NCBI GenBank assembly: GCA_035353815.1
Contig: DAOQAG010000001.1
Span: forward strand, 17,159 to 81,158
Source of the DNA: a bacterium
GTDB lineage: Bacteria > Zhuqueibacterota > Zhuqueibacteria > Residuimicrobiales > Residuimicrobiaceae
Length of the DNA stretch: 64,000 nt
Direction: 5' to 3'
The stretch's first letter is position 1, and the number at the start of each line of letters is the position of its first letter. Shown one piece after another: positions 17,778 through 48,820 of the stretch. The notes beneath the pieces were generated by a model. The model was not told the origin of the DNA and made no database searches. It worked only from the letters and a program-made list of their open reading frames with translations. Made by a program: the position numbers and the translations under genes.

Positions 17778-19706
17778 TTATTCTGCACTGCCCTCCTCCT
17801 TGGTCGCGTGCTCCTTTTCCTTGACCTCTTCATACCACGCCGGGAAGCGCTCCTCCGCCTCTTCTTCGGTTATCTTGCCGGTAAAGCCGGTAAGATTGAT
17901 CGGATAATCGGCGGGATGGAAAATCGCGAAAAACATATGATAGAGGAGGATGGCCAGAAACGCCAGCCAGGCTTCATAGAGGTGGATGACCTCGGCTACT
18001 TTGACGATCCATGCCGGCAGCAGAAAGGTTGCCGTGGTCGGGAACCAGAGAACAAAACCGGTCAGGGCCATGACCGCGGTACCCCATACCAGGGCCCAGT
18101 ACTCCGCCTTTTCGACATAGCCGTACCGTGCAAAGTTGGCGCGCTCCCGGCTGATCCCGAGATGATATTTCATATTGGCGATGAACTGGCGGACATCATC
18201 GATACCCGGCAACAGGGCTTTGAGTTCTCCGCGGGCGCTGCGCGCAAAGGCAAGATAGCCGAGGTGATAGATACCGGCTGCCAGCATCACCACCGCTGAA
18301 ATGCGGTGGATCAGGCCGCGCAACCCCTCGCTCAGGCCCAGGGTGGTCAGCAGTCGTGCCCATGCGGTGTTGGAGTATTTGAGGGCGAAGCCAGTGATCA
18401 CCAGCAGGGTAAAGGAGATAAAGATCGCCAGGTGCTGGATGATCCATGAACGGTCGAAGCGCTGGATCGTCTTTTGCAATTTTTGCGCCCGCCATTTGGC
18501 GCGGGCATATTTAAGCCAGATGATGAGATTGTGGAGCACCATGCCGCCGATCACCACGACGATCAGCCAGAGATACGCTTTGCCGATATAGCGGGCGAGA
18601 CGGTCGCCGAACGAATCGGGTTTGGCATGGATATAGCTCTGGGAAAATTCCTGGGTGGCATTGGGATGGCAGGAGCCGCAGGTCTTGCTGAGGTTGGCGA
18701 TGTGGATCGTCGAAGCCGGGTTGGACTGGGGCAGAATGGCATGGACGCCGTGGCAACTGGTGCAGTTGGCCGCCACCCGCGAACCCCGGTTGGTGGCCAG
18801 ACCGTGATAGCTGGCACGATAGGAGGTGACGGGATCGAGCGTAATGCCATATTTTTCATTCAACTGGAGCAGTCCATGGCAGGGGGCGCAGATCTTTTCC
18901 GAAACATTGGCCGCAGCGGTGGGTGAGGCCGCATCATCGGGGGAGAGGATTTCATGCTCGCCGTGGCAAAAGGTACACGTGGGCACCTCGGCGACACCCC
19001 GCGCCAGATCCATCCCGTGGATGCTGCCTTCGTATTCAGCCTCGACATCGCCATGACAGGTGCCGCAGGTTTTGGAGATATTGGCGCGAAACACCGGCGA
19101 CTGCGGATCGCTCGCGGAGCGCAAATGGTGGGGTTCGTGGCAGCTGCTGCAGGTCGCCGCCCCGTCATTGCCCGCCATCAAGGCTTTGCCATGCACCCCC
19201 CGGTTGAATTTCTCCACCGGCGCGGCAACGCGAATATCGTGCTTCTCGGCCAACCCTTTGTCGCGGTGGCAGGCGCCGCAGGTGGCCGGGAGGCGGGCCG
19301 GATGGGTGCGGGAGGCGGTCTCCAGGGAGCTGAGGATGTCATGTTTGCCGTGGCAATCGCTGCAGACCGGAGCGTCTGCATCGCCCGCCGCCAGCGCCTG
19401 GCTGTGGAGACCCTTGGCGAACTCGGCCGCGGCTTCGCTATGGCAGCGCGCACACTCCACCCGCTTGAGCGGCGAATCGTGGGGGTCGCCGACCGCATCG
19501 CGATGGCAATCCTTGCAATCCAGCCGGCCGTGCACCGATCGGGCAAAAACAGCTTCATCAACAAAGAGCGTATCTTCACCGCCCGAGGCATTGGGCCGCG
19601 TCATGGTGGAATCACCATGACAGACCGCACACGGGCTTTGCGCCAATGCACCCGCTGCGGCCAGAAGAATCGAGAAGAAGATAATGCTGAGGCCAGGTCT
19701 AGGCAT
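17778..19706 (-). CDS. Fusion cytochrome: a periplasmic 11-haem c-type domain joined to a C-terminal 4-helix dihaem b-type cytochrome (FdnI/HydC-like; the architecture of Geobacter CbcL)
   Basis: Signal peptide; 11 CxxCH motifs (CAVCH, CKDCH, CARCH, CSDCH, CGACH, CSSCH, CGTCH, CTFCH, CAPCH, CTSCH, CGSCH), mostly in a paired spacing. These are followed by 4 transmembrane helices with conserved His ('IQHLAIF', 'GLIHRISAVVMLAAGIYHLGYL', 'AEVIHLYEAWLAFLAILLYHMFFAIFHP'). Confidence 0.8.
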   Translation of the reverse strand: MPRPGLSIIFFSILLAAAGALAQSPCAVCHGDSTMTRPNASGGEDTLFVDEAVFARSVHGRLDCKDCHRDAVGDPHDSPLKRVECARCHSEAAAEFAKGLHSQALAAGDADAPVCSDCHGKHDILSSLETASRTHPARLPATCGACHRDKGLAEKHDIRVAAPVEKFNRGVHGKALMAGNDGAATCSSCHEPHHLRSASDPQSPVFRANISKTCGTCHGDVEAEYEGSIHGMDLARGVAEVPTCTFCHGEHEILSPDDAASPTAAANVSEKICAPCHGLLQLNEKYGITLDPVTSYRASYHGLATNRGSRVAANCTSCHGVHAILPQSNPASTIHIANLSKTCGSCHPNATQEFSQSYIHAKPDSFGDRLARYIGKAYLWLIVVVIGGMVLHNLIIWLKYARAKWRAQKLQKTIQRFDRSWIIQHLAIFISFTLLVITGFALKYSNTAWARLLTTLGLSEGLRGLIHRISAVVMLAAGIYHLGYLAFARSARGELKALLPGIDDVRQFIANMKYHLGISRERANFARYGYVEKAEYWALVWGTAVMALTGFVLWFPTTATFLLPAWIVKVAEVIHLYEAWLAFLAILLYHMFFAIFHPADYPINLTGFTGKITEEEAEERFPAWYEEVKEKEHATKEEGSAE

Positions 19707-19828
19707 GGTTTCGTCTCTCAGTTCCTGGTGGGACTACAAAGAAAAATCTCGCGCCGCCTGGGGATGGCAGCGCGAGAACGAGAGCTGGTGCACTACTTTC
19801 GGGGCGAAGCTATACCCGCCGATCCGGA

Positions 19829-20383
19829 TCAGCTTTTGGGCGCGGGATGCGCGATGAGCTTGAAGGCTTCTTCGGCCTTGAATGGCTTGTAGGTCGGGCT
19901 TTCCTGATTATGGCATTTGACGCAGTTCTTCTTGTCGCCGGGATTATAGGCGACTGCAGCGGCATCCTGGGTCTTGGCGGCCAGCGCTTTCATGACTTTC
20001 ATCGACTGGTAGAGCGAACCAGCGCCATGACAGGTTTCGCAGGTTACGCCCTCTTCCATCTTGTAGGTCGCGGCCTTGGCGGTGGCGGGGGCATCATACG
20101 CCGTCACATGGCACTTTAAACACTTGGCCGATTTCTGGGGATCTTCGACACCGGCCTTTTTGCCAACCGCCTTGGCTTCTTCCGTCGCCAGTGTGGCGAA
20201 GGCGCTGGCATGCTTGCTCTTGGCCCAAATCGCATAGGGCTCGCCTTTGGCTTTCGCGGAATGGCACATCTTGCACTTGGCGGCGCCAATGTACTGGGCC
20301 TTGTCGGTTTGAGCGAACAGGACCATCGAAAAGACCAGCGCCAGCACCAGAACCAGGGTGGTCACGAACACACGCTTGCTCAT
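19829..20383 (-). CDS. Periplasmic tetrahaem c-type cytochrome
   Basis: Signal/anchor 'RVFVTTLVLVLALVFSMVLFA' and 4 CxxCH motifs (CKMCH, CLKCH, CETCH, CVKCH). The start at 20383 has a GGAGGT RBS; an alternative ATG lies at 20395. Confidence 0.8.
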   Translation of the reverse strand: MSKRVFVTTLVLVLALVFSMVLFAQTDKAQYIGAAKCKMCHSAKAKGEPYAIWAKSKHASAFATLATEEAKAVGKKAGVEDPQKSAKCLKCHVTAYDAPATAKAATYKMEEGVTCETCHGAGSLYQSMKVMKALAAKTQDAAAVAYNPGDKKNCVKCHNQESPTYKPFKAEEAFKLIAHPAPKS

Positions 20384-20525
20384 TTTTACCTCCATCAGAG
20401 TTGACTGCTTGCGTCATATCGCTAATAAATAACCAATAAAAGATGAATATTGCAACAGCAAAATGCATCACTTTGGCCTGCTATAGCGATTTGCATCCCT
20501 AATAACGCAAAATCTGATGAAAAGT

Positions 20526-21911
<1,386 letters not shown>

Positions 21912-21923
21912 GCACCCGCCCTT

Positions 21924-23267
21924 CTAGCTGCCCAGGATAATGCGCATGACCGTTCCCCCGCTCGGGGGTTCCACCGCCTCGATCTCGCCGCCATGCGCTT
22001 CGACGATGCGTTTGCAAACCGCCAATCCCAGTCCCGTGCCACTGGCCTTGGTCGTGAAAAAGGGCTCAAAAATCTCCCGGCCGCGGCCCTGCAGTCCGGG
22101 ACCGTGGTCTTGCACTTCGATGACCACCAGCGCCCGGCCGAGCCGGCGCTGTTCCGCCAGACGCAGGGTGATCGCCGCCTCTGTACCCTCACCGAGCGCC
22201 TGCCGCGCATTGATCAGCAGATTGAGCACCACCTGCTCGATCTGCCCGGGATCGCAGCGATGAAAAAGATGCGCCACGCTGCACTCCCACTCCACCGCCG
22301 TCCCCTGGCGCGAGAAACGCGCCGCCAGCCCCAGTAGCAGCGGGACCAGATCGCAATGGCTCATCTCGAGCCGCGGTTCGCGCGCATAAGCGAGAAAATC
22401 GCTGACGATCCGGTTGAGGCGGACGATCTCTTCGTCGATATAGCCGAAAAATTCGTCCGTGCGCTCGGGCTGCGTCTGCTTTTCCCGCAGCACATCGGCA
22501 GTGCTCTTGATGATGGCCAGCGGATTGCGGATCTCGTGGGCGACGGTTGCGGCCATCTGCCCCATGCTCGCCAGCCGTTCCGACTGGTACAGCCGGTTCT
22601 CGGTGCGAACGAACTGGAGCATCGCCAGGGTCAGGAAGACAGCCAGCGCCGCCAGAAGGAGCAGGCTGACCACCACCCCGAGATAGAGGGCCTGGTAAAA
22701 CTGGTCCATCGTGCGCAGGAATCCGGCATTGGCCTCAAGTGCCAGCACCGCCGTTTGCCCATAAACATCGCTCACCGGCGCATAGACGCTTTTGAAATGG
22801 TTGCCGGCAACGGTATGCAGCCGTGAGGCCTGAACCGCCCCGCCGAGTGCCGCACGGATCTCGAGGCTGTCAGCGGCCAGATAGCTGCGCCCGGCCACCC
22901 GCTCGAGTTCACGGCGAGCATCGAGCAGCACACGCCCCTCCGGGTTGATCAGGTAGGCGGCTTCCAGCTCCTGGGCCAGACGGATGCGGTTCAGGCTGAG
23001 CCGCACATCGTCGGCATCGGCGGCATCCGAAAAACTGCTGCCACTGCGTTCGATGAGTTCAGCGGTCAGAGAGGCCGCAGCCATGAGCCGTTGATCCAGC
23101 GCATGCTCAAGTTCCCCTCCCATCTTCCTGAGGAAAAAATAGGAGCTGAGATTGTAGAGCAGGAGGAAAAAGAAGGTGACCATCATCACCATCACCACGG
23201 TGCGCTTGCGGCGACGCAGCAGGCGCAGTTGCGCGGCGGTAAGGGTCATTTTTTCGCGCTGGCTCAT
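21924..23267 (-). CDS. Sensor histidine kinase (two transmembrane helices, a ~150-aa periplasmic domain, HisKA and HATPase_c)
   Basis: H-box 'MAATVAHEIRNPLAIIK' and G-box 'GTGLGLAVCKRIVEAHGGEI'. It is adjacent to, and co-oriented with, the NtrC-like regulator. Confidence 0.85.
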   Translation of the reverse strand: MSQREKMTLTAAQLRLLRRRKRTVVMVMMVTFFFLLLYNLSSYFFLRKMGGELEHALDQRLMAAASLTAELIERSGSSFSDAADADDVRLSLNRIRLAQELEAAYLINPEGRVLLDARRELERVAGRSYLAADSLEIRAALGGAVQASRLHTVAGNHFKSVYAPVSDVYGQTAVLALEANAGFLRTMDQFYQALYLGVVVSLLLLAALAVFLTLAMLQFVRTENRLYQSERLASMGQMAATVAHEIRNPLAIIKSTADVLREKQTQPERTDEFFGYIDEEIVRLNRIVSDFLAYAREPRLEMSHCDLVPLLLGLAARFSRQGTAVEWECSVAHLFHRCDPGQIEQVVLNLLINARQALGEGTEAAITLRLAEQRRLGRALVVIEVQDHGPGLQGRGREIFEPFFTTKASGTGLGLAVCKRIVEAHGGEIEAVEPPSGGTVMRIILGS

Positions 23268-23291
23268 GGCTCCCCTCCTCCTTGCCGCAAC

Positions 23292-24347
23292 TCATTCCGC
23301 CAGGGCGGAGTGCACCTGGTCGAGGACATCTTTAACACCGATGGCCTGCATGCAGAACATATCCGGACAGAGATCGCGGTGGCAGTGGCTGCAATCGACC
23401 GCAGGATAGACGAGGCGGTGGCCGGCAGCTGCAGCGTAGGGGAACCAGATATCGGGTTCCCCGGGTCCAAATATCCCCACGGTTTTGGTGCCGACAGCCG
23501 GAGCAAGATGGAGCGGACCGCAGTCGTTGCTGACATAGAGCGTCAGCTGCGCCAGAACGGCCGCGAGCCGCCGCAGGGGGAGCGCCTCCGGGAGCGCCAG
23601 GGGAAAGGGCAAGGTCTTGAAGATCGCTGTGATGATCTGCTCCTCGCCGGGGCCCATGGTGAAGAGGATCTGCTTCTGCTCGTCGTGCAGGCGGGCCGCA
23701 AGGGCAGCGAAGCGTTCGGGAAACCAGCGTTTGGCCGGCCAGGTTGCACCGGGATGGAGACCGATCAGGGGGCGGTCCGGATCATAGCCCTTGTCCATCA
23801 GCCACTGCCGCGCCGCGCGGTGTTCCTCCGGCGTGATCTCGATATGGGTGGGAAGCGGCGCAGCGTCGAGGCCGAGGGGTGCCAGAGAGCGCAGATGATA
23901 GGCGATGGCGGTCATACGCTCTCCGCGGTCGAGGATCCGGTGGGTGTAAAGCAGGCGCCGGCCACGAAAATCACCGCCGATGCGCCGGCGCGCCCCGCTG
24001 AGGTAGAGTAGCAGCGCGGAGCGGGGATTGCCGAAGAGGTCGATCGCTACATCCCAGGACTTCCGGCGCAGGCTGCGGAGCAGGGCCACCTGGTCGCGGT
24101 CATCGCCGCGCCTGAAGGAATAAAGCTCATCCACCGCCGGATGGTGCTCCAGCAGCTGATCGTAGGGGGTCTCCGACAGGAAACCGATCCGCGCCTGCGG
24201 AAAATTCTGCCGCAGCGCGGCCAGCAGCGGCGTGGTGAGAATGATATCCCCCATAAAGCGTAGACGTGAGACCAGGATTGAGCGAATCTGCTCCGGTACG
24301 ATCCGGGGCCCCCTCCAGCCCTGTTCAATCGGCGTCGCCAACATCAA
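23292..24347 (-). CDS. Glycosyltransferase family 9 (ADP-heptose:LPS heptosyltransferase-like)
   Basis: 'ILVSRLRFMGDIILTTPLLAALRQNFPQARIGFL' is the GT9 N-terminal signature; '...VGIFGPG...' is also present. Confidence 0.8.
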   Translation of the reverse strand: MMLATPIEQGWRGPRIVPEQIRSILVSRLRFMGDIILTTPLLAALRQNFPQARIGFLSETPYDQLLEHHPAVDELYSFRRGDDRDQVALLRSLRRKSWDVAIDLFGNPRSALLLYLSGARRRIGGDFRGRRLLYTHRILDRGERMTAIAYHLRSLAPLGLDAAPLPTHIEITPEEHRAARQWLMDKGYDPDRPLIGLHPGATWPAKRWFPERFAALAARLHDEQKQILFTMGPGEEQIITAIFKTLPFPLALPEALPLRRLAAVLAQLTLYVSNDCGPLHLAPAVGTKTVGIFGPGEPDIWFPYAAAAGHRLVYPAVDCSHCHRDLCPDMFCMQAIGVKDVLDQVHSALAE

Positions 24348-24365
24348 CTCCTCTTCAAACAGCCA

Positions 24366-27300
24366 TCAGCGCATCAACAGCATTTTGCGGGTCAGCGTCC
24401 GGCCGCCCTGGGTCAGGCGATAGAGATAGGTGCCGGTGCTCCAGCCCCGGGCATCGACGCTGATCTGGTGCCGGCCGGCCGGCTGCAACCCCTCTGCCAG
24501 TACCGCCACCTCGCGGCCGAGCAGATCATAGACAGCCAGGCGGACCGGAGCGGCCTGGGGCAGTTCGTAGCTGATCTGCGTCACCGGATTGAAGGGATTG
24601 GGATAGTTCTGCTCAAGGCCGAATCGGGCCGGGAGGGTTACCTCCGCCTGCTCCACCGCCGTGGGATTGGTGGTTTTGAGAACGACCACCAGGTTGTCCA
24701 GATAGATCGATCCGCTGGCGGCTGATCCGGCATCCGGGGCGAGCTGGATACTGTCAATCGTCAATTTGTTGCCGTCCAGGGTGCCGTTGGTCGCCAGCCA
24801 GGAGCCGACCACGCCGGGGTCGCTCATCTTCCATTCCACCAGCCGCCAGCCATACCAGTCGATCTTGACCCACTGGGTCACCTCCGGCAGGGTATTTTTG
24901 GCGGCCACCTCATCGATCGCCAGCCGGAAGAGCGAGCCGCTTCCATCTCCAAAAACCTGGATTTGCAGGGTATAGGTCGTGTCAAAGAAGACGGTGGCCG
25001 GGGTCGTGGCCGGATCGAGATAGACGCGGCAGAGGTGCTCGGCCGCTGCAGTATCCCACTGATAGCGCAGGGCGGCAGAATACTTTTGCGTCCCGAGGGA
25101 GTTGGGCAGCCATACGGTCCGGTCCATTTCAAACAGGGTCTTGGCGGCGATGGTGCCGACCGTCGAGCCGCTATAGCTGGGATCTTTCCAGTTGCTGGCG
25201 CCGAAGAATTTTTCGATGGTTACCTCCTTCAGCGTCCGCTCACCCCGGGTCTTTAAATCCAGATCGATGGGCTGGGGGATGATATTGCCGAAGGTGTCGC
25301 TGAGGGTCGGCTTCAGGAGCAGATGATAATCGGTGTTGATCTCGAGGGCTTTGGCCGGCTGGATCGAAAGCACCGAGCGGTTGCCCATGGGCACGTGCGC
25401 CCACATTGATTTGACGGGCACTCCGCCGATAGATACGAGGATCGTGGAGTCCTTGATGGAGGCGGGCAGGATCCGTTCATTGAACACGAGGTTGATCACC
25501 CCTTCAACCGCCATCGGCTCTTGCGTCCCGGCGGGATAGAGGGCGATCAGTTCCGGACCATTGAGATCGCGGGCATCGGTCGTGAAACGGATTTGAAAGG
25601 ATCCGCCCGCGGCGCCGTCGGCGTCGCCATCGAGCGCCGTGCCGTTGCGATCGCGGGCGGCATCACTCAGAGTCAAAGTATAGGTCGTTGCGAACGCCAG
25701 AGGTGCTGCCGGCTGCAGGGTCAGGGTGCGGTGGTCCGCGCTCCAGGAGATCTTGCCCACCGCGATCGCGGGCGTGATGCTCAGGGCGGCCGCCACCGAC
25801 GTGGAATCCATCCCCTTGCTGAAGACGAGGACCAGGTCATCGCCGACATGCACCGTATCGCTGTTGGCGGGTGTCGAGGCGAAGAGCCGCGGTGCGAAAG
25901 AGGGGACCGGGCCGGCTTCCGCCACATTCGAAGGCAGGGATTCGTTCCAGAACCGGTCCAGGGTCGTGGCATAATAATAGAAGGAGCCGGCGTGATCCTG
26001 CAAGCCATCAAAATGGTCGGTATAGCTGGCGCTGCCGCCGCACCAGAGAATGCGGAGCAGGGGATCTTGGTCCGGTCGCGGGGTATTTTCTTCAATGCGA
26101 TAGAGGGCGATGCGCTGCGGCGTGGTCAGGCCCGCTGGCAGGGTGACGGTCACCTCATAGGTCAACGAGTCGCGCCGGTTGACCGCGACGCCGGGCGATT
26201 CCGGCGTGGCCGTGGACAAAAAGCGCGCAGCACGTATCTTGGTCTTGTTCGAAAAAAAGGATGCTGCAGCCTCGCTGAAAAAGACGTTGTCTTCCCAGGT
26301 GCCATAGCTGAAGAACTGAAAGCCATCCACCCAGGGCACCATGCGGCAATAGTCGACGATCTCGGCATGATGATCCATGATCCGGTTTTCACTGAGGATA
26401 TAGGAGGGCGGGCCGACACTGTAGAGCCGGCCGGCGGCGATACCCTCCTGCAGGAAGGGGCCCCAACTGTTGCTGGGACCGGCGAGCATCTTGTAGAAAT
26501 CGGCGCCGACGGTCCAGTGATAGTGCATCGGCATCAGTTGGTCGACATAGCCGCGGTTGAACCAGAGCGCTGCGTCCTGATAGACCGTGCCGTAGCCCTG
26601 CCAGCCGCCCCAGTTATAGTTGCCGAGGACGGCCGCCGAAAGCCGCACCCAAGGCTTGGCGGCCTGAACGGAATCGTGCAGGGTGTGGACGAATTCGGTA
26701 ACCGACCAGCGCCACCACTCTTCCCAGGAGCCGAATCCGGCGGGCACCCCTGCACTGTAGGGATGCTCGACGTCATAGAGATAGCGCGAAGCCATGTTCG
26801 CCTGGAGATCGGCGAGTTCGGCCTCGCTGATCTGACCATCCAGCTTGGGGCGGGCGGGCTCCTTTTGCAGCGCCGCTGCACCGGATTCCTCGTTCCAGCG
26901 CACATAGTCGAGATGGAGGCCATCGATATCATAGCGGCGCACCAGATCCATCGCCACCGCCACGGTATACGCGCGCACCGCTGCCAGTCCGGGTGAGAGG
27001 GCGCGCGAGGCGTTCATCGGCTGGTCGCTGGAGTTGCGGCAGACCCATTCGGGATGGTCGCCGGACGGCGATCCGGGTGCGGTCGACGAACACTGGAAGC
27101 TGTTGAACCAGGCGTGCAGCTCCAGGCCGCGGTTGTGGGCTTGCTCGATGGCATAGGCCAGGGGGTCGAAGCCCGGATCCATGCTGTCCAGATAGCTGCC
27201 CCACGGTTCAAAGCTGGAGGCATAATAGGCCGTGCCAGCCTGGCGCACCTGCCAGACCACGGCGTTCATGTTGGCTTTCTCGTGATCATCGAGAATCTTG

Positions 27301-27446: not shown

Positions 27447-27470
27447 TCCCAACCTCAATGATGGTTTGTG

Positions 27471-27525
27471 CAAAAAAATCCGCTGCGGCCGCCCCGGCTG
27501 GGGCTGCAAAATCACAGCGGATTTT
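27471..27525 (-). terminator. Rho-independent terminator after partner gene 1 (compound hairpin with a T-tract)
   Basis: On the minus strand: AAATCCGCTG ... CAGCGGATTT, enclosing an inner GCCCC/GGGGC hairpin, then TTTTTTT. Confidence 0.55.
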
Positions 27526-27536
27526 AACAGCAGCAG

Positions 27537-29729: not shown

Positions 29730-29746
29730 TTTAATTCCTCGTGCAA

Positions 29747-35005: not shown

Positions 35006-35035
35006 GGTGCTATTGCTCCTCTGCCGTCTGCCGGG

Positions 35036-38062: not shown

Positions 38063-38280
38063 AGAATCCTCACCTAAAAAGAGGGCATGAACGGGCAATG
38101 ACGCCACGACCATAGGGAGTGCAATCCGTGCTGCACCACCCCCTGGTCCATGATTACAGGCGGCGCGAACAATGACCATCGGGGAACAGCCGCGAGGGTG
38201 CCCCCGGCAGGGAGGCGGCGTGCGCCGCCCTCTTGCCGGAGGTATCCTTGCCCCCGGTCCTGCCGGAGTCAATGACACCC

Positions 38281-38317
38281 GCAGAGAAAAGCCTGTGCGC
38301 CTTGCGGCGCACAGGCT
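38281..38317 (-). terminator. Rho-independent terminator after the 805-aa CBM-like gene
   Basis: Perfect 12-bp stem AGCCTGTGCGCC / GGCGCACAGGCT with a 4-nt loop, followed on the minus strand by TTTTCTCT. Confidence 0.65.
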
Positions 38318-38333
38318 CTCTCCGGAAAAACGG

Positions 38334-40918: not shown

Positions 40919-42142
40919 TCACTGCAAGCCGTAATAGGGGGCACTCTCTTTTTGCGTATTGATGCGAATGATGGTCTGCGCATACTTGATCGTTTCGCCT
41001 TCAAGCACCTGTTCGCGCGTCATGTAGAGATTCGAGCCCGGACCCCAGGCGAAGAGCAGCGTCTTGGGGAAAAACTGCCCGGGATAGAGGGGCTCGTACG
41101 AGCCGGTCGGGCTGACCAAAAAGATGGCTTCGGGGGCATCGGTCCCGACATACATATAGCCATCCGCGGAAAAGGTGATACAGTAGACGCCGTAGCCGCC
41201 GCCCACCTTGGCCGAGAAATCAAAGTACTCTTCCACCGCACCCAGGTCCTGTCCATTGAAGGGGAAGCGCCAGACCTTGTCCGCGCCATCCTTCTTGCCG
41301 GCGACATAGAGATAGCCGTTGTAGACCCGCACCGATTTGAGGTTGGCGGTGAAGGGGAACTTGGTGATGCTCTTGTCCGGTTTGATACGATAGATGTCGG
41401 TATTGTTGCCCACACCCCAAAGGTTGTGGTTAACATCAAAATCCAGGTCATAGATCGTGCCCAGGCCGGAGGAGACGAAAGTGGCCGGCTTGGTCGCGGC
41501 CGCGGCGATCGAGAAGATGCCCTTGAGATTACGCGCGCAATAGAGCACGTTGCCGGGGCCCATCTTCATGGCCGACCAGAAGGTCTCACCGCCTTTGGGG
41601 GCATAATCGACGTATTTCTCAGCGCCCGGGGTGACGATCTTGACGCCGGCACCGGCATTGCTGACCACCAGCGAGGCATAGACATTGCCGGTCGCGTCCG
41701 TCGCAATACCGTAGGGAATCTCGGCGGGGGTGAAAGTCAGGAGATTCACCTGTGCCGCTTCGAGCTTGTAGGGCCACTTGTTGCTAAAGATCTCGGCATT
41801 TTTCACGGCGATGCGGATGGCGATCGAGTCGGAGACATAGATCGGTGCACGCACCTTCAACTGCGTCGCCGAGGCCTCCACCACCGTTCCCTTTTCAGCG
41901 TTGAAATAGACAATATTGTCCTCTTTCACCGTCGAAAAGTTGGAGCCGGTGAAGGTAATCAGGGTCACCCCCGAAAGCGCCACACTGGCCGGCTCCACCG
42001 CCGAGATGACCGCCGGGCTGCTCGTCTTGGCGTTGGGATCGTACAAGCTGGACGGATAGTCGTTACTGTCGCATCCCGCCAGCACAAAGATCAAGGCGGC
42101 CACCAGGAAGATCGCCTGTAAAATGATAAATCTCTTTCCCAT
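40919..42142 (-). CDS. Lipoprotein with an N-terminal IPT/TIG-like Ig domain and a beta-propeller-like (NHL/SMP-30-type) region
   Basis: Lipobox 'LVAALIFVLAGCDSN', IPT-like 'PVISAVEPASVALSGVTLITFTGSNF', and repeated 'G.(V/L)Y(V/C)' blades. Confidence 0.5.
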   Translation of the reverse strand: MGKRFIILQAIFLVAALIFVLAGCDSNDYPSSLYDPNAKTSSPAVISAVEPASVALSGVTLITFTGSNFSTVKEDNIVYFNAEKGTVVEASATQLKVRAPIYVSDSIAIRIAVKNAEIFSNKWPYKLEAAQVNLLTFTPAEIPYGIATDATGNVYASLVVSNAGAGVKIVTPGAEKYVDYAPKGGETFWSAMKMGPGNVLYCARNLKGIFSIAAAATKPATFVSSGLGTIYDLDFDVNHNLWGVGNNTDIYRIKPDKSITKFPFTANLKSVRVYNGYLYVAGKKDGADKVWRFPFNGQDLGAVEEYFDFSAKVGGGYGVYCITFSADGYMYVGTDAPEAIFLVSPTGSYEPLYPGQFFPKTLLFAWGPGSNLYMTREQVLEGETIKYAQTIIRINTQKESAPYYGLQ

Positions 42143-42187
42143 ATGAAACGTCCTCATCTAATGATCAACGGATCAACCTTCAGTGAA

Positions 42188-43195
42188 TTAGATGCCGAGC
42201 CTGCAGGTGAAGCGGTGGACATTATTGAACACATCCATCGGCGAATAGGAGTAATCGATGCTCACGCCGAAATTGGTGTTCACGCCGAAGCCGGCCGTGA
42301 ACCCGTAATCATCCTGCCTGGTGATGTAGCCGGCGCGCAGGGCGAGCAGATCCATGAGCTTGTACTCGGCGCCAAGATTGAGGTATTCGGGAAAATCGCG
42401 CGGATGGACCGCATCGATCGAGAGCAGCAGGTTGTGATTTTTGCCGATCGCCGGAACCAGATCGAGAGCATCCATCGAAAATCCCACTTTGAAGGTCAAG
42501 GGCAGCTGAAAACCCTCACGCTCGTACTTGACTTCCTGAGAAAAATTGCGCACGCACATGCCGAATGCCAGACTCTTGAAGCCGGTTTTGTAGAGTGTGC
42601 CGAAATCAAAGGCATAGACGCTCTTGAGGTAATCCTTGTTATCCGTAACATAAGGCGCGGTATTGTTCAGGGGGATGGTGACATGACCGAGATCCTGATG
42701 CACATACTTGACCTGGCCGCCCACCGAGAAGCGGTCGGTCAGATCGATCGCATAGCCGAGTCCGATGGTCCACGCGCTCGGGCCGAATTTGCCGGTATCC
42801 AGAAAACCCTGCTCGTTATCCGCGACGACCGTGCCATCGAGATCGCCATAATCAATGGCCATGGCGCTGACGCCAAAGGTGCCGTACTGACCGCGGAAGG
42901 GCCGGCCAGCGAGTGAGAGGGCCAGATACTGGATATCTGCGATCCAGGTCATCTGCGTGAATGAGGCATCAAGATTCTTGATACTGCCGGCCATACCGGC
43001 GGGATTGTAAAAGAGCGCGGAACCGGAACCTTCCACCGTGGTGAAGGCCTCCCCCATGCCGGTGGCACGGGCATCGGTGCCGACACTGAGAAACTGGCAT
43101 CCGGTCTGGGCGAGCTTTTTCTGAGCCTGGCCATCCGTATAAAAGGCGCCTAGCACCAGAAGAACGGATACGATACAAACGATCATACGCTTCAT
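42188..43195 (-). CDS. Outer-membrane beta-barrel of the FadL/PorV superfamily (candidate PorV-like T9SS shuttle)
   Basis: Signal peptide, then 'GTDARATGMGEAFTTVEGSGSALFYNPAGMA', which matches the N-terminal motif shared by FadL and PorV/LptO barrels. The protein is amphipathic beta-strand-rich and ends 'FTCRLGI'. Confidence 0.5.
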   Translation of the reverse strand: MKRMIVCIVSVLLVLGAFYTDGQAQKKLAQTGCQFLSVGTDARATGMGEAFTTVEGSGSALFYNPAGMAGSIKNLDASFTQMTWIADIQYLALSLAGRPFRGQYGTFGVSAMAIDYGDLDGTVVADNEQGFLDTGKFGPSAWTIGLGYAIDLTDRFSVGGQVKYVHQDLGHVTIPLNNTAPYVTDNKDYLKSVYAFDFGTLYKTGFKSLAFGMCVRNFSQEVKYEREGFQLPLTFKVGFSMDALDLVPAIGKNHNLLLSIDAVHPRDFPEYLNLGAEYKLMDLLALRAGYITRQDDYGFTAGFGVNTNFGVSIDYSYSPMDVFNNVHRFTCRLGI

Positions 43196-43235
43196 AATCC
43201 ATTACTCCTTTATTGGAATTGCGTGTCTATAGCCT

Positions 43236-45317
43236 TTAGCGGATGACGACAAACTTGCGAATAGCTTTCTGGCCGTCGGGCGTTTCAAAGACCACGATAT
43301 AGAGCCCGCTGACGACGGTCTGAGCCGAGGAGGTAATGGAATTCCAGGCTTCATCACCGCTGCCATTGGTGTGCTCGATGGTATTGATCAGGTCGCCACG
43401 CTCGGTAAAGATCTTGATCGTGCAAATGCCGGGAATGTTATAGAACATGATCCGGTCCGGTCCGCTGTCACCGAACTGCAGGTCCCTGGCGCGAATGCTG
43501 TAGGGATTCGGGACGATGCGGATATCCGACAACGATTCTCCCGCCTTGCGCTTGAGATTGGTCGGATTGATCGTCTTGGCATAAAAGATACCGCTGTGCA
43601 GGGAGCCGCCGGGATTGGCCGTGGTTTGGTTCTTGCTGCCATCATCAAAGGAGACGATATAGTAGTAATAGTCGAAACCGCGGATGGCTGTCATATCGTC
43701 AAAACTATTGACGACCTGGGGATTTTTGGTGCCCTTGCCGCACGCAAAAATCTCCTCAAAAAGGGTGTCGGGGGTATGGATGGCCCGGTAGATTTTATAA
43801 CCGGCAAACCCCGGCCAGCTTTCGGCATTGTTCGACCATTTGAGCTGGATGCGGTCGCCGCCGCCGGCGACTTCGAAAAAGCTCGGGGCCGGCGGGGGTA
43901 CCGGAATCTTGTAGCTGGCCTTGAAATTGGCGGCGGCGCGCTTGAAGGTCTTGATCAGCGAATCGCGGCCGGTGTAAACCCACTTGTCCTTGTACTCATC
44001 CTTGTCGGTGGTCGTCGAACCATCCGGCAGCACATAGGGGCCCTCTTCCTTGAGCCACTTGGCGCCGATGGTGTAGCAGGACTTGCGGTCGAGGCCAGCG
44101 ATGCCCTCGGCCAGGACGATGTGAACGCTGTCGCCCGGCGCCAGGGTATAAGGCCCGAAGCCGGCGCACTGGGAGAAGCCGCCGACCGTGCCCAGATACT
44201 CATCCGCCGCCTGACCCGAGGCGATGACGCCATCGGCATGGCTTTTAGCCGGGTGGCCGGCGGTCATCGCCGCGTACTCCTGGGTCATCTTGGGCTCGTT
44301 GTAGGGATCGTTGCCCGAGGTGATGGTGACATCCGAACCCAGGTACTGCGTCGTCGTCGGCTGGAGCTTGTCATTGCTATGGTCGGTAGCACTCTTGTCG
44401 GCATGAAGCACGGCAAAACCTGCATAATGCGGCGCGGTCAGGTGGCCGTCGCCATTCTCGCGGTTGTCCGGAGCACCGATGCAGTCAAAACCGGCCTTGG
44501 AATGCTGGCCCTTCCAGCAAAAGAGCGAGAGGTACTTCTCGATCCCATCCTGGTCGGAGACCCACATGGTGTCGTTCATTTCATTGTGACCCCAGGCCGC
44601 CGACTGCGGCAGGATACTCAGGCCATAGACGCAGGCCTCCTTGGAGACCGCATAGCGGTGCTGAAAGAAAAAGACCACCCCGGTCAGGGTCTGATTGACC
44701 TTGGTGCCCTTGGTGTCGATGATGCCGGTATTGACAAAAGTGTATTCCTGAATAAAGTAATTGTCATGATACTGCTGGGCAAATTGATAGATCTTGCGCT
44801 TTTCGGTGATGCCCATCTGGGTATTGGCCACCGTGTACAGATAGCGGTCGGCGGTCAGGTTGGGATCGACCTCATCGACGAAATCCATCAGATCAAGCTT
44901 GCCGCCGGAGGTGCCATCGACATAGACCGTCGATTTGTCGTGGCGGCCGTAGAGCTTGAATTGGGAGGGCATCCATTCGCTCAACTCGTTGAGGACGCGC
45001 GGGCCGACATGCACCACTTTGAATGGATAGGTCTTGCCGGCAATCGGATCGTTGTAGTTGGTTGCGCCAATCCACAGGGCCTTGGCCGCCTTGCAGTCCT
45101 GATATTCAAACAAGGCCGGCCACTGCAGGCCGTCTTGCTGATCGGCCACCAAATGCCGCCGGCCGACTTCCTGTTCGTAGCCGGCGCTGGAAAACCAGTC
45201 ATGCAGCATACCCGTAGCCAGCCATTTGGTGTCATCCGCCTGGACCGGATGAAGGGCCAGGAGCAGCGTGGCAACAAGGCTGGTCAGGATCAGTAGTGTT
45301 TTTCGTCTCATATCCAT
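43236..45317 (-). CDS. Partner 3: divergent paralog (~40% identity) of the partner family, with a T9SS-type CTD, downstream of transporter 3
   Basis: Signal 'LLILTSLVATLLLALHPVQA', 'FAQQYHDNYFIQ', 'IQLKWSNNAESWPGFAGYKIYRAIHTPDT', and C-terminus 'VPNPYSIRARDLQFGDSGPDRIMFYNIPGICTIKIFTERGDLI ... SGLYIVVFE ... RKFVVIR'. Confidence 0.6.
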   Translation of the reverse strand: MDMRRKTLLILTSLVATLLLALHPVQADDTKWLATGMLHDWFSSAGYEQEVGRRHLVADQQDGLQWPALFEYQDCKAAKALWIGATNYNDPIAGKTYPFKVVHVGPRVLNELSEWMPSQFKLYGRHDKSTVYVDGTSGGKLDLMDFVDEVDPNLTADRYLYTVANTQMGITEKRKIYQFAQQYHDNYFIQEYTFVNTGIIDTKGTKVNQTLTGVVFFFQHRYAVSKEACVYGLSILPQSAAWGHNEMNDTMWVSDQDGIEKYLSLFCWKGQHSKAGFDCIGAPDNRENGDGHLTAPHYAGFAVLHADKSATDHSNDKLQPTTTQYLGSDVTITSGNDPYNEPKMTQEYAAMTAGHPAKSHADGVIASGQAADEYLGTVGGFSQCAGFGPYTLAPGDSVHIVLAEGIAGLDRKSCYTIGAKWLKEEGPYVLPDGSTTTDKDEYKDKWVYTGRDSLIKTFKRAAANFKASYKIPVPPPAPSFFEVAGGGDRIQLKWSNNAESWPGFAGYKIYRAIHTPDTLFEEIFACGKGTKNPQVVNSFDDMTAIRGFDYYYYIVSFDDGSKNQTTANPGGSLHSGIFYAKTINPTNLKRKAGESLSDIRIVPNPYSIRARDLQFGDSGPDRIMFYNIPGICTIKIFTERGDLINTIEHTNGSGDEAWNSITSSAQTVVSGLYIVVFETPDGQKAIRKFVVIR

Positions 45318-45343
45318 TCCTTCTCGATTAGGGGATGAGAAAA

Positions 45344-48300
45344 TTAAAAATTGTAGTTCAGCGTGATGCCGAAAAAGATCTGCCGTGGATTGAAGAAATT
45401 GAGAAAGGTCTGATTCGGCATATCGATATAGGCCTTGTCGTCAAGTATCTTTTTAATCTTGCTGTCGGCTACTTTTTGCCACTGGCCCTCGACATACTGC
45501 ATATAACGCCCGGACGGCCCTTCATAGTAGACGGCGCGCGTGCTGGGGGCGGTGACCGTATTCACATCCGATACCCACTCCATCGGTACGAACTCGACAT
45601 CATCGTCCCGGTAATCGCCGGGCTGATCGCTGCCGGGGATATTGTTGTAGCCCAGATGACGGGCAATGGACTGGGGCAGATGGAGCGATTTCATGTAGTA
45701 ATTATAATCATAGATGTCGACGTGGGCATTGCCGGAAAGGTACTTGTAGTTGATGGCATTGTAGACATCGACAAAGCCCTTGAGCTCGACCGGGCCGAGA
45801 TCGAAGGTCTTGGAGAGTTTGAGGTTCAGGCCGTACCAGTCTTTATACTGGGTGTTGTAGCTGATGCCGGCGATATCCTGGGGATTCCAGGTCATCCAGT
45901 AGCCGGCAATCCACTGCGCCGTGGTCGTAAAATGCCAGTCGCCGAGGATCGCGCCGAAATCGGTGGGGGTGTTGAAATCCAGATAAGCCTTGACCCGCGG
46001 CCGCGGCCGCGGTTTGGACTGAACCGGATTGCTCTTGTTGTACTCGCGCTGCGCCGCGGGATCTTCATACTGGTAGGCGCGGCCGAAATAGCCGGAGGTC
46101 TCGACGCGGTATTCATAATTGACGTCGCCCACCAGCCACCGCCCCATCGTGCGGGAGAGATCCACTTCAAAGCCGCGGATATCCTCGTACGAGTTGTTGG
46201 TGTTCTTGTAATAATTGACCTTGCCGTCATAGCTGATGTAGCGGACCGAATAGGCCTGGTCGGTGATATCCTTGTAATAGGCGGCCATGTGCAGCAGGAA
46301 ATTATTAAAGAGGGCATGATCGTAGCCTAACTCATAGGCGACCGTCTTTTCAAAGGGCACCGTCGGATCGCCATAGCGGCTCAGGGCATTGATGCCGGTG
46401 CGCTGCACGCGGTAGAGGCTCTCCGAGGTCGGGATCTGCCGGTAATGGCCGTAGTTGAAATAGAGTTTGGAATTCTCCGTGATCGGATGCGAAATGCTCA
46501 TGCGCGGGCTGAGAATCCAGCGCGGCTTGACATCCTTGGATTTGTACTGCGCATCCAGGTTGCTGGTATATCCCTGGCCAAAAAAGGTCCGGTCATAGGT
46601 GGAGACATTATACCACTGGCTGTTGGGGGTATAATAATCGAGGTTGGCGCCGACAGTGGCAATAAAGCCTTCGTACTCCAGCTTGTCGAGCAGATAAAAG
46701 TTGCCACGGATGGGCTTCTGATTGACATTGTTCCAGAAGTTGCCCTCGGGCAGATAGGCGTTGTAGGCGCCGTAGGAGAGCTTGTAATCATCCATGACCA
46801 CTTCGACGCCGCTCTTGATCTGATTGCGGCGATTGACCTGGCTGACCAGATCGAGTTTGCCGCTGTAGGTCATGTACTTGCTGTAATCGCGGGAGACGCC
46901 GACAGCGCCACCCATCATGAAATCACCGTCGATGCCATAGACCGGCGTGGTGCTGAAGCCGAAGGGGGCTTCATCGACGGAATAGCCGGGGATGATTTCG
47001 TATTTGGCGGTTTCGTCACGATAACCGCCGGGATTGGTGAAGTATTTTTTCTGCGAATATTTCAGCTGGAAATCGTAATAGGTGCTCTTGTTGATAAAGT
47101 GGGTCAGTTTGGAGGAAAAGGTCGAATAGAACCGCGAGGTCGGCGAAAAATAGATGTCGGTGTAGATGCGCGTCGGTACGGTGAATCCCGCAGAGGCCAT
47201 CTGCGCCGCAATATCATCCGGGCTGCTCATGATCGAGGTGCCGCCGGAGAGACTGTAGTTGGTGCCATAGGTTTCACCGTAGAGGCCGCTCAGTGAGAGT
47301 TTCATCGAGGGGGTGATGTCGGCGCCGAGACGCAGCAGGGTGCTCTTGTCGAGCAGATCCTTGCGGGACATTTCAAAAAGGTACTTCTCGCTCTCCTGGC
47401 GCCCGGAGATGAAGAAGCGCAGGTTGCCGAGCTTTTTGCCGATGAGCGGCACCGGGCCGCCAAAGCCGAAATCAGCGAGATAATCGGGTTTGGTGATGTC
47501 GCCCTGCTTGCGGTGCTGCCATTTGAAGATGGTCTGGGCCGCTTGCGGGGTCACATCATTGGTCGGGTCGTCGTCGGTCAGCGAGGTCTGCGAGACGGCA
47601 TTCCAGCCGTCAAACTCGGGATACTGACGCCGCGTATAGGCATCCCAGGCGCCGTTCTTGGTGCCGGTCCAGCAGACGGCATCATCGAGATAGGGGCGCA
47701 GCCAGTACGAATCGGCGCCAAAGGGCGAGACATCGCCGAAATACTTTTTCAGGTAGCTCTTGCCGGAATTCCAGGGCTGGGCGTTGGTCCGAAATGTGAA
47801 GGTGCCGCTGAGACGACTGGGATCGCCCTCGCGGGTGACCACATTGACCAGGCCCGAACGGACGTTGTTGTACTCGGCCCCGAAGCCGCCGGCCTGCACG
47901 GAGACCTGCTTGACGGCACTGAGAGGAACCTTGGCGATCGGGGTATTGTCGCGCTCATCGCGCAACGAGATGCCGTCGACCATAAACAGGGCTTCCTCCG
48001 AACCGCTGCCGCGGATCGAGAGGCCCGAAGTAACACCGGCCTGGATGCCGATGGCCTCGCCCACCGAAGAGATCGGCAGATTCTTGATCTGATCGGAAGT
48101 CACCTGCAGCTCGCTCGCCGCCAGGTCCTTCTGGATCACCGGCCGTTCCGCGCGCACCGTGATCTCTTCGCCCACCAGCGATTGTTCTTTCAGCCGGATA
48201 TTCTGGTTGGTGGTCAGGTCGATATTCACCTTGACCCCGGTGACCGTAACCGGGCTGAAGCCGATGAAAGAGATCTGCAGGTCATACGTTCCCGGCGGAA

Positions 48301-48499
48301 CATTCAGGATGGTGTAGTGGCCATCCAGATCGGTAACCGCGCCAAGGCTCGTGCCTTTGATCAGGACGTTGGCCCCGGGCAACCCCTGGCCCGTGGCCGA
48401 ATCGGTGACCGAGCCGGCGATCTTGCCGGTCGTCCCCGCCAGAATCCAGGTTGCGGAACCGAGTACCAGCAGCAAAACCAGTAGCCGACGAAGCTTCAT
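45344..48499 (-). CDS. SusC/RagA-like TonB-dependent outer-membrane transporter 3 (divergent paralog)
   Basis: The Met at 48499 has a GAGGAGAAA RBS: 'MKLRRLLVLLLVLGSATWILAGTTGKIAGSVTDSATGQGLPGANVLIKG'. TonB box 'EEITVRAERP'; plug '...FMVDGISLRDERDN...GGFGAEYNNVRSGLVNVVTR'; C-terminus '...RQIFFGITLNYNF'. Confidence 0.8.
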   Translation of the reverse strand: MKLRRLLVLLLVLGSATWILAGTTGKIAGSVTDSATGQGLPGANVLIKGTSLGAVTDLDGHYTILNVPPGTYDLQISFIGFSPVTVTGVKVNIDLTTNQNIRLKEQSLVGEEITVRAERPVIQKDLAASELQVTSDQIKNLPISSVGEAIGIQAGVTSGLSIRGSGSEEALFMVDGISLRDERDNTPIAKVPLSAVKQVSVQAGGFGAEYNNVRSGLVNVVTREGDPSRLSGTFTFRTNAQPWNSGKSYLKKYFGDVSPFGADSYWLRPYLDDAVCWTGTKNGAWDAYTRRQYPEFDGWNAVSQTSLTDDDPTNDVTPQAAQTIFKWQHRKQGDITKPDYLADFGFGGPVPLIGKKLGNLRFFISGRQESEKYLFEMSRKDLLDKSTLLRLGADITPSMKLSLSGLYGETYGTNYSLSGGTSIMSSPDDIAAQMASAGFTVPTRIYTDIYFSPTSRFYSTFSSKLTHFINKSTYYDFQLKYSQKKYFTNPGGYRDETAKYEIIPGYSVDEAPFGFSTTPVYGIDGDFMMGGAVGVSRDYSKYMTYSGKLDLVSQVNRRNQIKSGVEVVMDDYKLSYGAYNAYLPEGNFWNNVNQKPIRGNFYLLDKLEYEGFIATVGANLDYYTPNSQWYNVSTYDRTFFGQGYTSNLDAQYKSKDVKPRWILSPRMSISHPITENSKLYFNYGHYRQIPTSESLYRVQRTGINALSRYGDPTVPFEKTVAYELGYDHALFNNFLLHMAAYYKDITDQAYSVRYISYDGKVNYYKNTNNSYEDIRGFEVDLSRTMGRWLVGDVNYEYRVETSGYFGRAYQYEDPAAQREYNKSNPVQSKPRPRPRVKAYLDFNTPTDFGAILGDWHFTTTAQWIAGYWMTWNPQDIAGISYNTQYKDWYGLNLKLSKTFDLGPVELKGFVDVYNAINYKYLSGNAHVDIYDYNYYMKSLHLPQSIARHLGYNNIPGSDQPGDYRDDDVEFVPMEWVSDVNTVTAPSTRAVYYEGPSGRYMQYVEGQWQKVADSKIKKILDDKAYIDMPNQTFLNFFNPRQIFFGITLNYNF

Positions 48500-48820
48500 A
48501 ACGGATTTCTCCTCTTGTTGAAAAGGTAGAGTGAATTGGGGGTATACGTGATGGCTGCCGCGTTGCAGGGCGTCCAGGAAGAGTAAAAAAAGCTGCATGC
48601 CGCTCCTTGCCACGCCCCCACAACGTGGAACATCTTGAAATATGGCGGACACCCATGGAGAGGCGTGATGAGCACACCCTGAAAACCTCCGCTGGCAGTG
48701 GAAGGCAGTTGGTCACTCATTGCTGAGAGCAGTAGTTCGGTGCGAGGCTGATGACCCTGAAATATCCTAGGATCAATATTCATAGTCTACCACTTTTCCC
48801 CCACAAAGTCAATACTTTTA

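Follow-up and report, generated by a model that had tools for sequence, protein, structure and literature searches.

A same-strand gene array in a KSB1-like bacterium, read as a type IX secretion-linked glycan uptake cluster beside an unrelated cytochrome module

The window analysed here is a 64,000-nucleotide stretch of the JGI metagenome contig DAOQAG010000001.1 whose nearest named relatives are metagenome-assembled genomes (MAGs) of candidate division KSB1, and it carries an unbroken run of minus-strand genes at 17778-48652. The question raised by this array is whether its genes form one system. A preliminary description had presented it as a locus resembling a polysaccharide utilisation locus (PUL), with transporters, secreted partners and enzymes, an embedded heptosyltransferase and, at its end, a cytochrome pair under sigma-54 control. 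The continuity of the run was borne out by the open reading frame (ORF) listing and by Pfam and NCBIfam scans, and these scans together with counts of CXXCH motifs also upheld the domain contents and haem numbers given there. We counted 15 genes in the run, not the 16 originally given, and found that the same-strand run extends upstream of the array to a PIN-PhoH gene (48821-50167). Our analysis suggests, with a probability of roughly 0.6, that the array consists of two unrelated modules that are co-oriented neighbours in one KSB1-like lineage, module A serving glycan uptake in several phyla and module B serving anaerobic respiration.

Module A contains three TonB-dependent transporters (TBDTs) with a CarboxypepD_reg domain, a plug and a barrel, each followed by a gene for a partner protein of 693-730 aa. 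TBDT3 (45344-48499) and partner 3 (43236-45317, 693 aa) stand at the upstream end of the array, and TBDT2 (35036-38062), partner 2 (32852-35005, 717 aa), TBDT1 (29747-32788) and partner 1 (27537-29729, 730 aa) form a second group. The ORF of TBDT3 reaches 48652, previously taken as its start, but the MKLRRLLVLLLVLG...AGTTGK signal peptide (MKLRRLLVLL...), which parallels those of TBDT1 and TBDT2, puts the start near 48499. The ORF of TBDT2 reaches 38278, and the gene call of the source contig gives a protein of 1008 aa. PF13715, PF13620 and PF07715 were detected in all three TBDTs and PF00593 in TBDT2, and with lengths of 1008-1051 aa the proteins have the layout of the SusC type (N-domain, plug and a barrel protein of about 1000 aa). 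When scored against the SusC/RagA model TIGR04056, the three TBDTs reached 88, 70 and 75 bits against a cut-off of 368, and the matches covered only model positions ~2-282, corresponding to the N-terminal domain and the plug. Searching solved structures with TBDT1 using phmmer gave no match, and a profile built from 20 TBDT sequences found no full-length SusC among solved structures, matching instead the plug/barrel of Cir, PqqU, YncD and PhuR and the isolated N-terminal domain of a 'SusC homolog'. Identification of the TBDTs as SusC was thus ruled out by the sub-cut-off TIGR04056 scores and the lack of a full-length SusC structure match. TBDT and partner paralogues have diverged in step: TBDT2 is 63% identical to TBDT1 and partner 2 is 59% identical to partner 1, and for the third pair the values are 43% and 43%.

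The partners were examined for family, fold and sorting signals. No Pfam family was found for them even at E 0.1 over 23 family members, and they carry ordinary signal peptides and no lipobox. An AlphaFold model of partner 1 was built on a 23-sequence alignment (pLDDT 76, pTM 0.72) and consists, after the Sec signal, of a galactose-mutarotase-like beta supersandwich (~31-420), a helical hairpin, a fibronectin type III (FN3) domain and a C-terminal beta-sandwich, the last probably being a divergent type IX secretion system (T9SS) C-terminal domain (CTD) at ~612-730. Alignment places partner 3 in the same supersandwich-FN3-CTD family. Foldseek added FN3 tandems to the structural matches of the model, among which there was no SusD-like fold. 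SusD is an alpha-helical TPR protein with a lipid anchor. The absence of a Pfam family, the beta-rich fold and the lack of a lipobox therefore ruled out the partners as SusD, and from the SusC and SusD results together it follows that the array holds no adjacent susC/susD pair and is not a PUL in the strict sense. The earlier PUL-like label stands as far as a transporter-centred, T9SS-linked, glycan-type cluster of ~24 kb is concerned and fails for SusC/SusD membership. What the arrangement supports is a functional analogy, a TBDT with a dedicated partner as a putative counterpart of the SusC/SusD pairing.

The partner CTD was compared with curated models and with the CTDs of neighbouring proteins. 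In the curated models the matches were weak: TIGR04183 was reached by partner 3 only, at 17.8 bits (cut-off 23, E 2.5e-3), the NCBIfam model of the PorZ C-terminus at E 4e-4 (partner 3) to 6e-3, and CHU_C at E~0.04 in 5 of 23 family members. When the last ~119 residues of the partners were aligned by hhalign with 25 bona fide CTDs taken from homologues of the GHL10 and starch-binding-domain (SBD)-like proteins described below, the match had a probability of 78.5% and an E of 1.7e-5. This alignment ran end to end with two insertions, and the PNP(Y/F), SGxY and terminal K-x-x-x-(K/R) motifs were aligned. The partners are thus probably sorted by the T9SS, as had been proposed, judging by this profile comparison. 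The CTD is also the most conserved segment of the partners, with a mean column identity of 0.78 as compared to 0.53 in the neighbouring cargo CTDs, and because this exceeds the conservation of ordinary cargo CTDs it hints that the domain may be retained for a specific interaction. PorZ acts in the T9SS together with the PorQ barrel.

The partner family has many members. Among the word-sharing candidates that were scored it comprises 721 clusters at 90% identity, and 599 representatives at 50% clustering (E<=1e-30); named members are called 'fibronectin'. Identity across phyla is ~60%, and in the supersandwich numerous D, H, R, W and Y positions are invariant. Some members (P0292, P0296, P0298, P0299 and others) are twice as long, at 1450-1600 aa, and in these the supersandwich-FN3 part (profile ~10-600) is fused to ~900 further residues.

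Four further proteins accompany the transporter-partner pairs. A PorV/PorQ-family outer-membrane barrel (42188-43195) passed NF033709 with 204 bits against a cut-off of 90 and matched PorV of F. johnsoniae (6h3i_F, E 3.6e-6). Because it fell below the equivalog cut-offs for PorV (83 vs 250), PorQ (88 vs 220) and PorV2 (48 vs 325), it represents a separate subgroup. Next to it lies a lipoprotein (40919-42157; lipobox LAGC) with an IPT/TIG domain (PF01833, 45.5 bits) and an NHL-like beta-propeller whose repeats match Pizza/NHL designs. The SBD-like protein (38334-40751, 805 aa) has an N-terminal region, three modules of the CBM20/48/53 superfamily of carbohydrate-binding modules (CBMs) with repeated SFNGW-type motifs, and a type A CTD; PF00686, PF16561, PF02922 and PF16760 occur in its homologues, one of which bears the name 'starch binding domain protein'. 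Sequence searches of solved structures with the SBD-like and IPT proteins gave little. The GHL10 protein (24366-27446) combines a GHL10 TIM-barrel (PF02638, 128 bits) with Big_5 (85.6 bits) and a type A CTD. In agreement with the proposal that enzymes and binding proteins of the array are T9SS cargo, the CTDs of the GHL10 and SBD-like proteins exceeded the curated cut-offs of both Por_Secre_tail (PF18962; 32.0 and 28.0 bits, cut-off 27) and TIGR04183 (39.4 and 35.9 bits, cut-off 23). The closest solved structure of the GHL10 domain is Cwp19 (5oq2, E 1.4e-25), the match spanning residues 22-181 only.

Conservation of this gene set was assessed by scanning one genome per species, which gave at least 567 partner-encoding stretches, and 80 loci from other genomes were kept with 10-kb flanks and annotated by BLASTP with the window's 15 proteins. 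Of 94 partner genes with enough upstream sequence, 89 were directly preceded by a TBDT gene. In loci of at least 20 kb (n=36) the PorV-like barrel was present in 33, the IPT protein in 31, GHL10 in 24 and the SBD/CTD protein in 21, and the usual order was TBDT3-P3-(small lipoprotein)-PorV-(IPT)-TBDT1-P1-(PorV)-IPT-SBD-GHL10, where P denotes a partner. Hosts were labelled KSB1, Calditrichota (including Caldithrix), Ignavibacteriales/Melioribacteraceae, Marinimicrobia/Fidelibacterota, Kryptoniota and Delongbacteria, and some loci carry the unverified labels of 'Bacteroidetes' or 'Cytophagia' MAGs. The uptake core thus appears to be an undescribed cluster that is widely conserved across several phyla; no published description of it was found in the literature, an absence that is no proof of novelty.

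Two observations were made on these loci. The closest relatives of the window, L015 (CAYTCI010000001.1), L007 and L076 with 88% partner identity, are labelled 'uncultured Cytophagia bacterium', and slightly more distant relatives are labelled KSB1, so that the Cytophagia label looks like a MAG mis-assignment. In 21 of the 80 loci (for example L070:5132-5779 and L091:4021-4563) a small lipoprotein-like ORF of one family (~180-216 aa, no Pfam match) separates the P3-type partner from the PorV-like barrel; the window has none, and the gap there is 40 nt.

The remaining genes of the array make up module B. The GT9 glycosyltransferase (23292-24347; PF01075, 123 bits) scored below the cut-offs of its equivalog models (TIGR02201 145 vs 170, TIGR02195 98.5 vs 134.6, TIGR02193 83.9 vs 185.3). 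Its start had been described as overlapping the GHL10 stop, but the GT9 start at 24347 and the GHL10 stop at 24366-24368 are separated by an 18-nt gap, and the ATG that does overlap this stop is out of frame with GT9. Downstream lie a sensor histidine kinase (HK; 21924-23267) with HisKA and HATPase_c domains and a periplasmic loop between transmembrane segments at residues 22-40 and 189-207, and an NtrC-type response regulator (20526-21911). The regulator combines a receiver domain (Response_reg), an AAA+ Sigma54_activat domain (PF00158, 241 bits) with GAFTGA at residue 222, and HTH_8, which identifies it as a sigma-54 enhancer-binding protein of the NtrC type. It is followed by a periplasmic, c554-like tetrahaem cytochrome c (19829-20383; PF13435, 67.5 bits) with four CXXCH motifs and a signal peptide, here called cyt4, and by a fusion protein of 642 aa (17778-19706) with 11 CXXCH at residues 26-347 and a cytochrome b domain (PF01292, 51.7 bits) at 416-598. 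The membrane domain of the fusion is of the Ni_hydr_CYTB/FdnI type and matched FdnI (1kqf_C, E 8.6e-9); in an alignment seven invariant histidines lay in or near it, and a crude scan gave 5 hydrophobic segments. The fusion therefore has the architecture of CbcL, a multihaem c part joined to an FdnI/HydC-type dihaem b part.

The linkage of the two modules was assessed in both directions. Cytochrome homologues were found in 0 of the 80 partner-centred loci. GT9, HK and NtrC, among them the supposedly embedded heptosyltransferase, were missing from 79 of the 80, and GT9 and NtrC were present only in L015, the 88% relative, whose locus ends before the cytochrome position. In the reciprocal comparison, TBDT, partner, IPT, GHL10 and SBD homologues were found in 0 of 80 cytochrome-centred metagenome loci (38-46% identity), and in the same loci NtrC-like and cyt4-like genes were each found in 7. 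With decreasing identity of the fusion the order broke up in steps: relatives at 79%, 74% and 66% keep GHL10...GT9...HK-NtrC-cyt4-fusion, two of them with extra esterase/GHL10 genes and L086 with AlkZ-like and NYN genes inserted between GHL10, GT9 and HK; in a 60% relative only cyt4-fusion persists, amid unrelated genes; and at 59% and 54% the fusion stands alone. The synteny check proposed in the preliminary description thus showed the modules to be unlinked beyond family level, and the claim that the cytochrome pair forms the end of an uptake locus did not survive it. GT9, the regulator pair and the cytochromes are neighbours of the conserved cluster and not members of it, their linkage to it is confined to close relatives, and a link between cytochromes and glycan is best read as adjacency.

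Tail-to-tail with the fusion is a 93-aa ORF (17400-17681, +) whose signal is lipoprotein-like (LLFTAC) and whose C-terminal half is hydrophobic, and a 94-aa ORF occupies the same position in L083 and L084. It was set aside as a part of module B, having no Pfam family and lying on the opposite strand, despite its conserved position in these two relatives.

Transcription units were assessed from terminators. Consensus scans alone were uninformative because their counts lay at or modestly above shuffle level, with 15 and 16 terminators against 15.0 and 14.6 in shuffled sequence, and 11 and 16 sigma-70 promoters against 7.7 and 9.2. Terminators were judged by folding energy and conservation instead. 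Four hairpins with T runs folded far better than shuffled controls: T1 after the SBD-like protein (38279-38333, -36.9 kcal/mol, z -6.3), T2 after partner 1 (27465-27536, -35.8 kcal/mol, z -4.1, with a T7 run behind the hairpin), T3 between the cytochrome genes (19747-19777, a 12-bp stem with 9 GC pairs and then a T run, -24.5 kcal/mol, z -5.0) and the bidirectional T4 at the array end (17727-17761, an A7-stem-T7 palindrome, -31.3 kcal/mol, z -9.0). The T1 hairpin is kept in L015 and L006, the latter with changes on both sides of the stem. T1, T2 and T4, which had been named before, were confirmed as strong terminators that no shuffled sequence equalled (z -4.1 to -9.0); T3 had been missed. Because these four strong terminators cut it, the array is made of at least four transcription units, namely TBDT3...SBD, TBDT2-P2-TBDT1-P1, GHL10-GT9-HK-NtrC(-cyt4) and the c/b fusion. 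Tight packing, with gaps of 12-24 nt and no terminator, is seen only in GHL10-GT9-HK-NtrC. Local GC skew in the window is set by the coding strand, and since in addition the terminators cut the run, co-orientation by itself is no evidence of a single unit.

The spacer between the tetrahaem and fusion genes (19707-19828) varies among relatives. It measures 11 nt in L083 (L083:9989-10001) and 209-258 nt in L084, L086 and L087, and in the window it is 122 nt long and contains a strong terminator, a variation that suggests that the two genes have become uncoupled in expression in particular lineages.

Sigma-54 control of the cytochromes was examined by scanning the whole window and each intergenic region for the consensus TGGCAC-N5-TTGCA. 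The best intergenic -24/-12 matches upstream of any unit reached 7/11, so the claim of sigma-54-controlled cytochromes found no intergenic site of 8/11 or better behind it, and relatives do not share the 7/11 site that precedes the tetrahaem gene. The only 10/11 site in the window (24499) lies inside the region coding for the GHL10 CTD and is absent from relatives, and ~0.7 sites of this quality are expected by chance. L015 has a good site ahead of TBDT2 (GGGCAC-N5-TTGCT) that the window does not share. In an alignment of five relatives, the element conserved ahead of the tetrahaem gene is CTGTTGCAAT-N-TTGGTTATTTA (20426-20458), which resembles a sigma-70 promoter (TTGCAA-N18-TATTTA) and not a -24/-12 site, and this element is kept in L087, which is without the regulator. 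A further sigma-70-like sequence, TTGACT-N17-TAGACT, lies upstream of TBDT3 at 48784-48812. Since the kinase and activator genes follow closely on GHL10, their targets could lie in module A, in module B or in neither.

Taken on these results, module A (~24.4-48.5 kb) would carry out outer-membrane uptake of a polymeric glycan. Each TBDT would have a Sec-exported, T9SS-sorted partner whose supersandwich binds, and possibly processes, glycan at the cell surface, so that the partner would play the role that SusD plays for SusC while being anchored via the T9SS rather than by lipid. The PorV/PorQ-family barrel may receive, shuttle or tether the partner through its conserved CTD; we infer a physical complex of TBDT, partner and PorV-like barrel, and import as its direction. 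Substrate would be captured by the lipoprotein with its IPT and propeller domains and by the SBD-like T9SS cargo, and cut by the GHL10 enzyme displayed through the T9SS. Module B (17.8-24.3 kb) comprises a GT9 of housekeeping type, the two-component pair with its sigma-54 activator and a CbcL-like system, made up of the fusion and the small tetrahaem carrier, for quinol:periplasm electron transfer. The fusion most likely oxidises menaquinol, the electrons going on to periplasmic carriers, for instance the tetrahaem protein encoded next to it.

Comparison with Bacteroidota PULs showed several likenesses, namely a TBDT with a CarboxypepD_reg-like N-domain, a plug and a large barrel followed by the gene of a dedicated surface partner, several such pairs per locus, a lipoprotein with Ig-like and propeller domains, CBM proteins and a glycoside-hydrolase-like enzyme. 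Unlike in PULs, the TBDTs lie far below the SusC/RagA cut-off, with no full-length SusC structure match, and the partner is a beta-rich supersandwich with FN3 and a probable T9SS CTD instead of an alpha-helical, lipid-anchored TPR protein. A PorV/PorQ-family barrel is near-constant, no hybrid two-component or ECF (extracytoplasmic function)/anti-sigma regulator is conserved with the uptake core, and the core occurs mainly outside Bacteroidota proper. The core also resembles PorZ-PorQ of the T9SS attachment complex and SprB-SprF/PorP-like pairs in that a putative CTD-bearing surface protein is encoded beside a PorV/PorQ/PorP-type barrel. The best weak NCBIfam match of the partner CTD is the PorZ C-terminus, and its conservation above that of ordinary cargo CTDs is as expected if it is retained for binding. 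The core differs from these pairs in that the barrel passes the broad PorV/PorQ family model only and not the equivalogs, and in that the cargo is paired with a TBDT, a pairing not known for PorZ or SprB. CbcL of Geobacter sulfurreducens has nine haem c groups and a dihaem b domain with six helices (PMC9129911). It shares with the fusion a single polypeptide with an N-terminal periplasmic multihaem c part and a C-terminal HydC/FdnI-type dihaem b membrane domain (PMC9129911), as well as a small periplasmic multihaem cytochrome encoded alongside as a likely acceptor. The fusion differs in its 11 CXXCH as compared to 9 and its ~5 hydrophobic segments in the crude scan as compared to 6 helices, and the likeness is one of architecture and not a direct comparison with GSU0274.

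Several points weigh against reading the array as an uptake module beside an unrelated respiratory one. Both modules stay linked in four near relatives. Because GHL10-GT9-HK-NtrC is packed with 12-24 nt gaps and no terminator, the regulator pair could be co-transcribed with the module A enzyme GHL10 and regulate either module. The T9SS core genes (SprA/Sov, PorK/L/M/N, PorU) are absent from the 64-kb window, and in Pfam and NCBIfam the partner CTD stays below the thresholds. The ~60% partner identity across phyla is far above what is usual for a SusD-type binding protein and hints at catalysis or at a tight multi-protein interface. The substrate hints conflict, with starch-binding-type CBMs on one side and peptidoglycan-type enzymes on the other, and each peptidoglycan-type accessory gene was found in only one or two loci.

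The alternative taken from the preliminary description is a single system, in which a PUL-like uptake locus has a sensor/regulator that also controls the cytochrome pair, for example for electron disposal during polymer oxidation. In its favour, every gene lies on one strand, the order GHL10-GT9-HK-NtrC-cyt4-fusion is kept in relatives with 66-85% identity of the fusion (in L015 as far as NtrC), the GHL10-to-NtrC gaps are 12-24 nt and the regulator, with its GAFTGA, is a genuine activator of sigma-54. We nevertheless regard such a system as very unlikely: terminators part the transporter operons from the rest and the cytochrome genes from each other, no unit has a -24/-12 promoter upstream, and the tetrahaem promoter element is sigma-70-like and persists without the regulator. 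Outside the close clade reciprocal synteny is 0/80 in both directions, L086 has foreign genes between those of the array and the cluster encodes no oxidative enzyme. The preliminary description was accurate as an observation apart from small errors, and its combined PUL and cytochrome system is unsupported.

Within module A, two other roles for the TBDT-partner pairs were considered. The partner may be a surface enzyme, for example a polysaccharide lyase of the beta-sandwich type, an epimerase or a hydrolase, with the TBDT importing its products; the ~60% identity across phyla and the invariant D/H/R/W/Y residues would fit this, the galactose-mutarotase fold is catalytic in aldose epimerases, and the fold also matches polysaccharide lyase chains (PL4, PL15, PL26, PL35). 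The top structural matches, however, align 260-340 residues of chains of 650-2,600 residues, and going by known family architecture we take the matched lyase part to be the non-catalytic N-terminal sandwich beside an (alpha/alpha)6 barrel. The partner model has no (alpha/alpha)6 barrel, no sequence family of known chemistry was matched and no active site could be assigned, which makes an enzymatic partner rather doubtful. Alternatively, the pairs could serve export or surface assembly, or accessory attachment of T9SS cargo. Oar of Myxococcus, a TBDT with a CarboxypepD_reg N-domain, is reported to be required for PopC secretion (PMC6434023), all non-TBDT core members except the IPT lipoprotein are T9SS-related, and a dedicated PorV/PorQ-like barrel is present. 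An export function fits poorly with a core that holds a glycoside-hydrolase-like enzyme and carbohydrate-binding modules, with relatives that add the catabolic genes NamZ, amidase, ROK kinase and NagB-like, and with two or three TBDT-partner pairs per locus, which is typical of substrate uptake, and we consider it very unlikely. Uptake of a glycan by module A, next to an unrelated module B, remains the reading that we prefer.

Candidates for the substrate are the glycan strands of peptidoglycan or an alpha-glucan. An alpha-glucan would fit the SBD-like modules, which are of the CBM20/48/53 group. DigH of E. coli is a GHL10 member. Cwp19 is a peptidoglycan lytic transglycosylase (PMC6016235), and E. 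coli needs the glycosyl hydrolase DigH for the separation of daughter cells (PMC12288456). The GHL10 protein shares with them the TIM-barrel GHL10 domain, but here Big_5 and a T9SS CTD are joined to this domain, which is predicted to be displayed outside the cell. Clusters in relatives occasionally include a NamZ exo-muramidase, an Amidase_3+Big_5 protein, a beta-lactamase-family protein, a ROK kinase and a NagB-like gene. Going by these gene annotations peptidoglycan may be the substrate, a lead and not a result. As a tentative extension, which we hold to be possible but short of an even chance, the non-Bacteroidota members of the Fibrobacterota-Chlorobiota-Bacteroidota (FCB) superphylum (KSB1, Calditrichota, Ignavibacteria, Marinimicrobia, Kryptoniota) might share a counterpart of SusCD, in which a T9SS-exported supersandwich-FN3 lid or partner keeps its CTD and docks to a PorV/PorQ-like barrel, perhaps for scavenging peptidoglycan necromass via surface GHL10.

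The valuable part of the array is the T9SS-linked TBDT-partner system and not the PUL-cytochrome combination emphasised before. If the core of TBDT, partner and PorV-like barrel works as proposed, the SusCD principle would reach beyond Bacteroidota with another fold and with T9SS instead of lipid anchoring, a function would be suggested for a large partner family (the 599 representatives) that is without a Pfam model, and orphan PorV/PorQ paralogues would gain a concrete role. It would also provide a handle on the uptake of polymeric carbon, possibly cell-wall debris, by abundant uncultured Marinimicrobia, KSB1 and Calditrichota. The cytochrome module is a further non-proteobacterial example of a CbcL-like quinol oxidoreductase. 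More generally, long same-strand arrays need synteny and terminator checks before they are read as single systems.

Additional observations were made on genes outside the array. A 912-aa protein (14636-17374, +) with ASH/HYDIN-type Ig domains, Golvesin_C and a FlgD_ig/T9SS-like C-terminus (YPNPFN...LFLIR) is another probable T9SS cargo; its gene converges on the cytochrome module, and this position is conserved in relatives. In L083 (16979-19065) and L084 (18057-20137) nrfH-nrfA genes (Cytochrom_NNT and Cytochrom_C552, nitrite reductase) lie 6-8 kb from the c/b fusion, flanked by a pseudouridine synthase gene and an S21 gene; in the window (11867-13686) these two flanking genes are ~580 nt apart and nrfHA is absent. 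The window also carries two full-length sigma-70 genes of group-1/2 type (3423-4283, + and 54656-55540, +), which encode proteins of 286 and 294 aa, both with regions 1.2, 2, 3 and 4.

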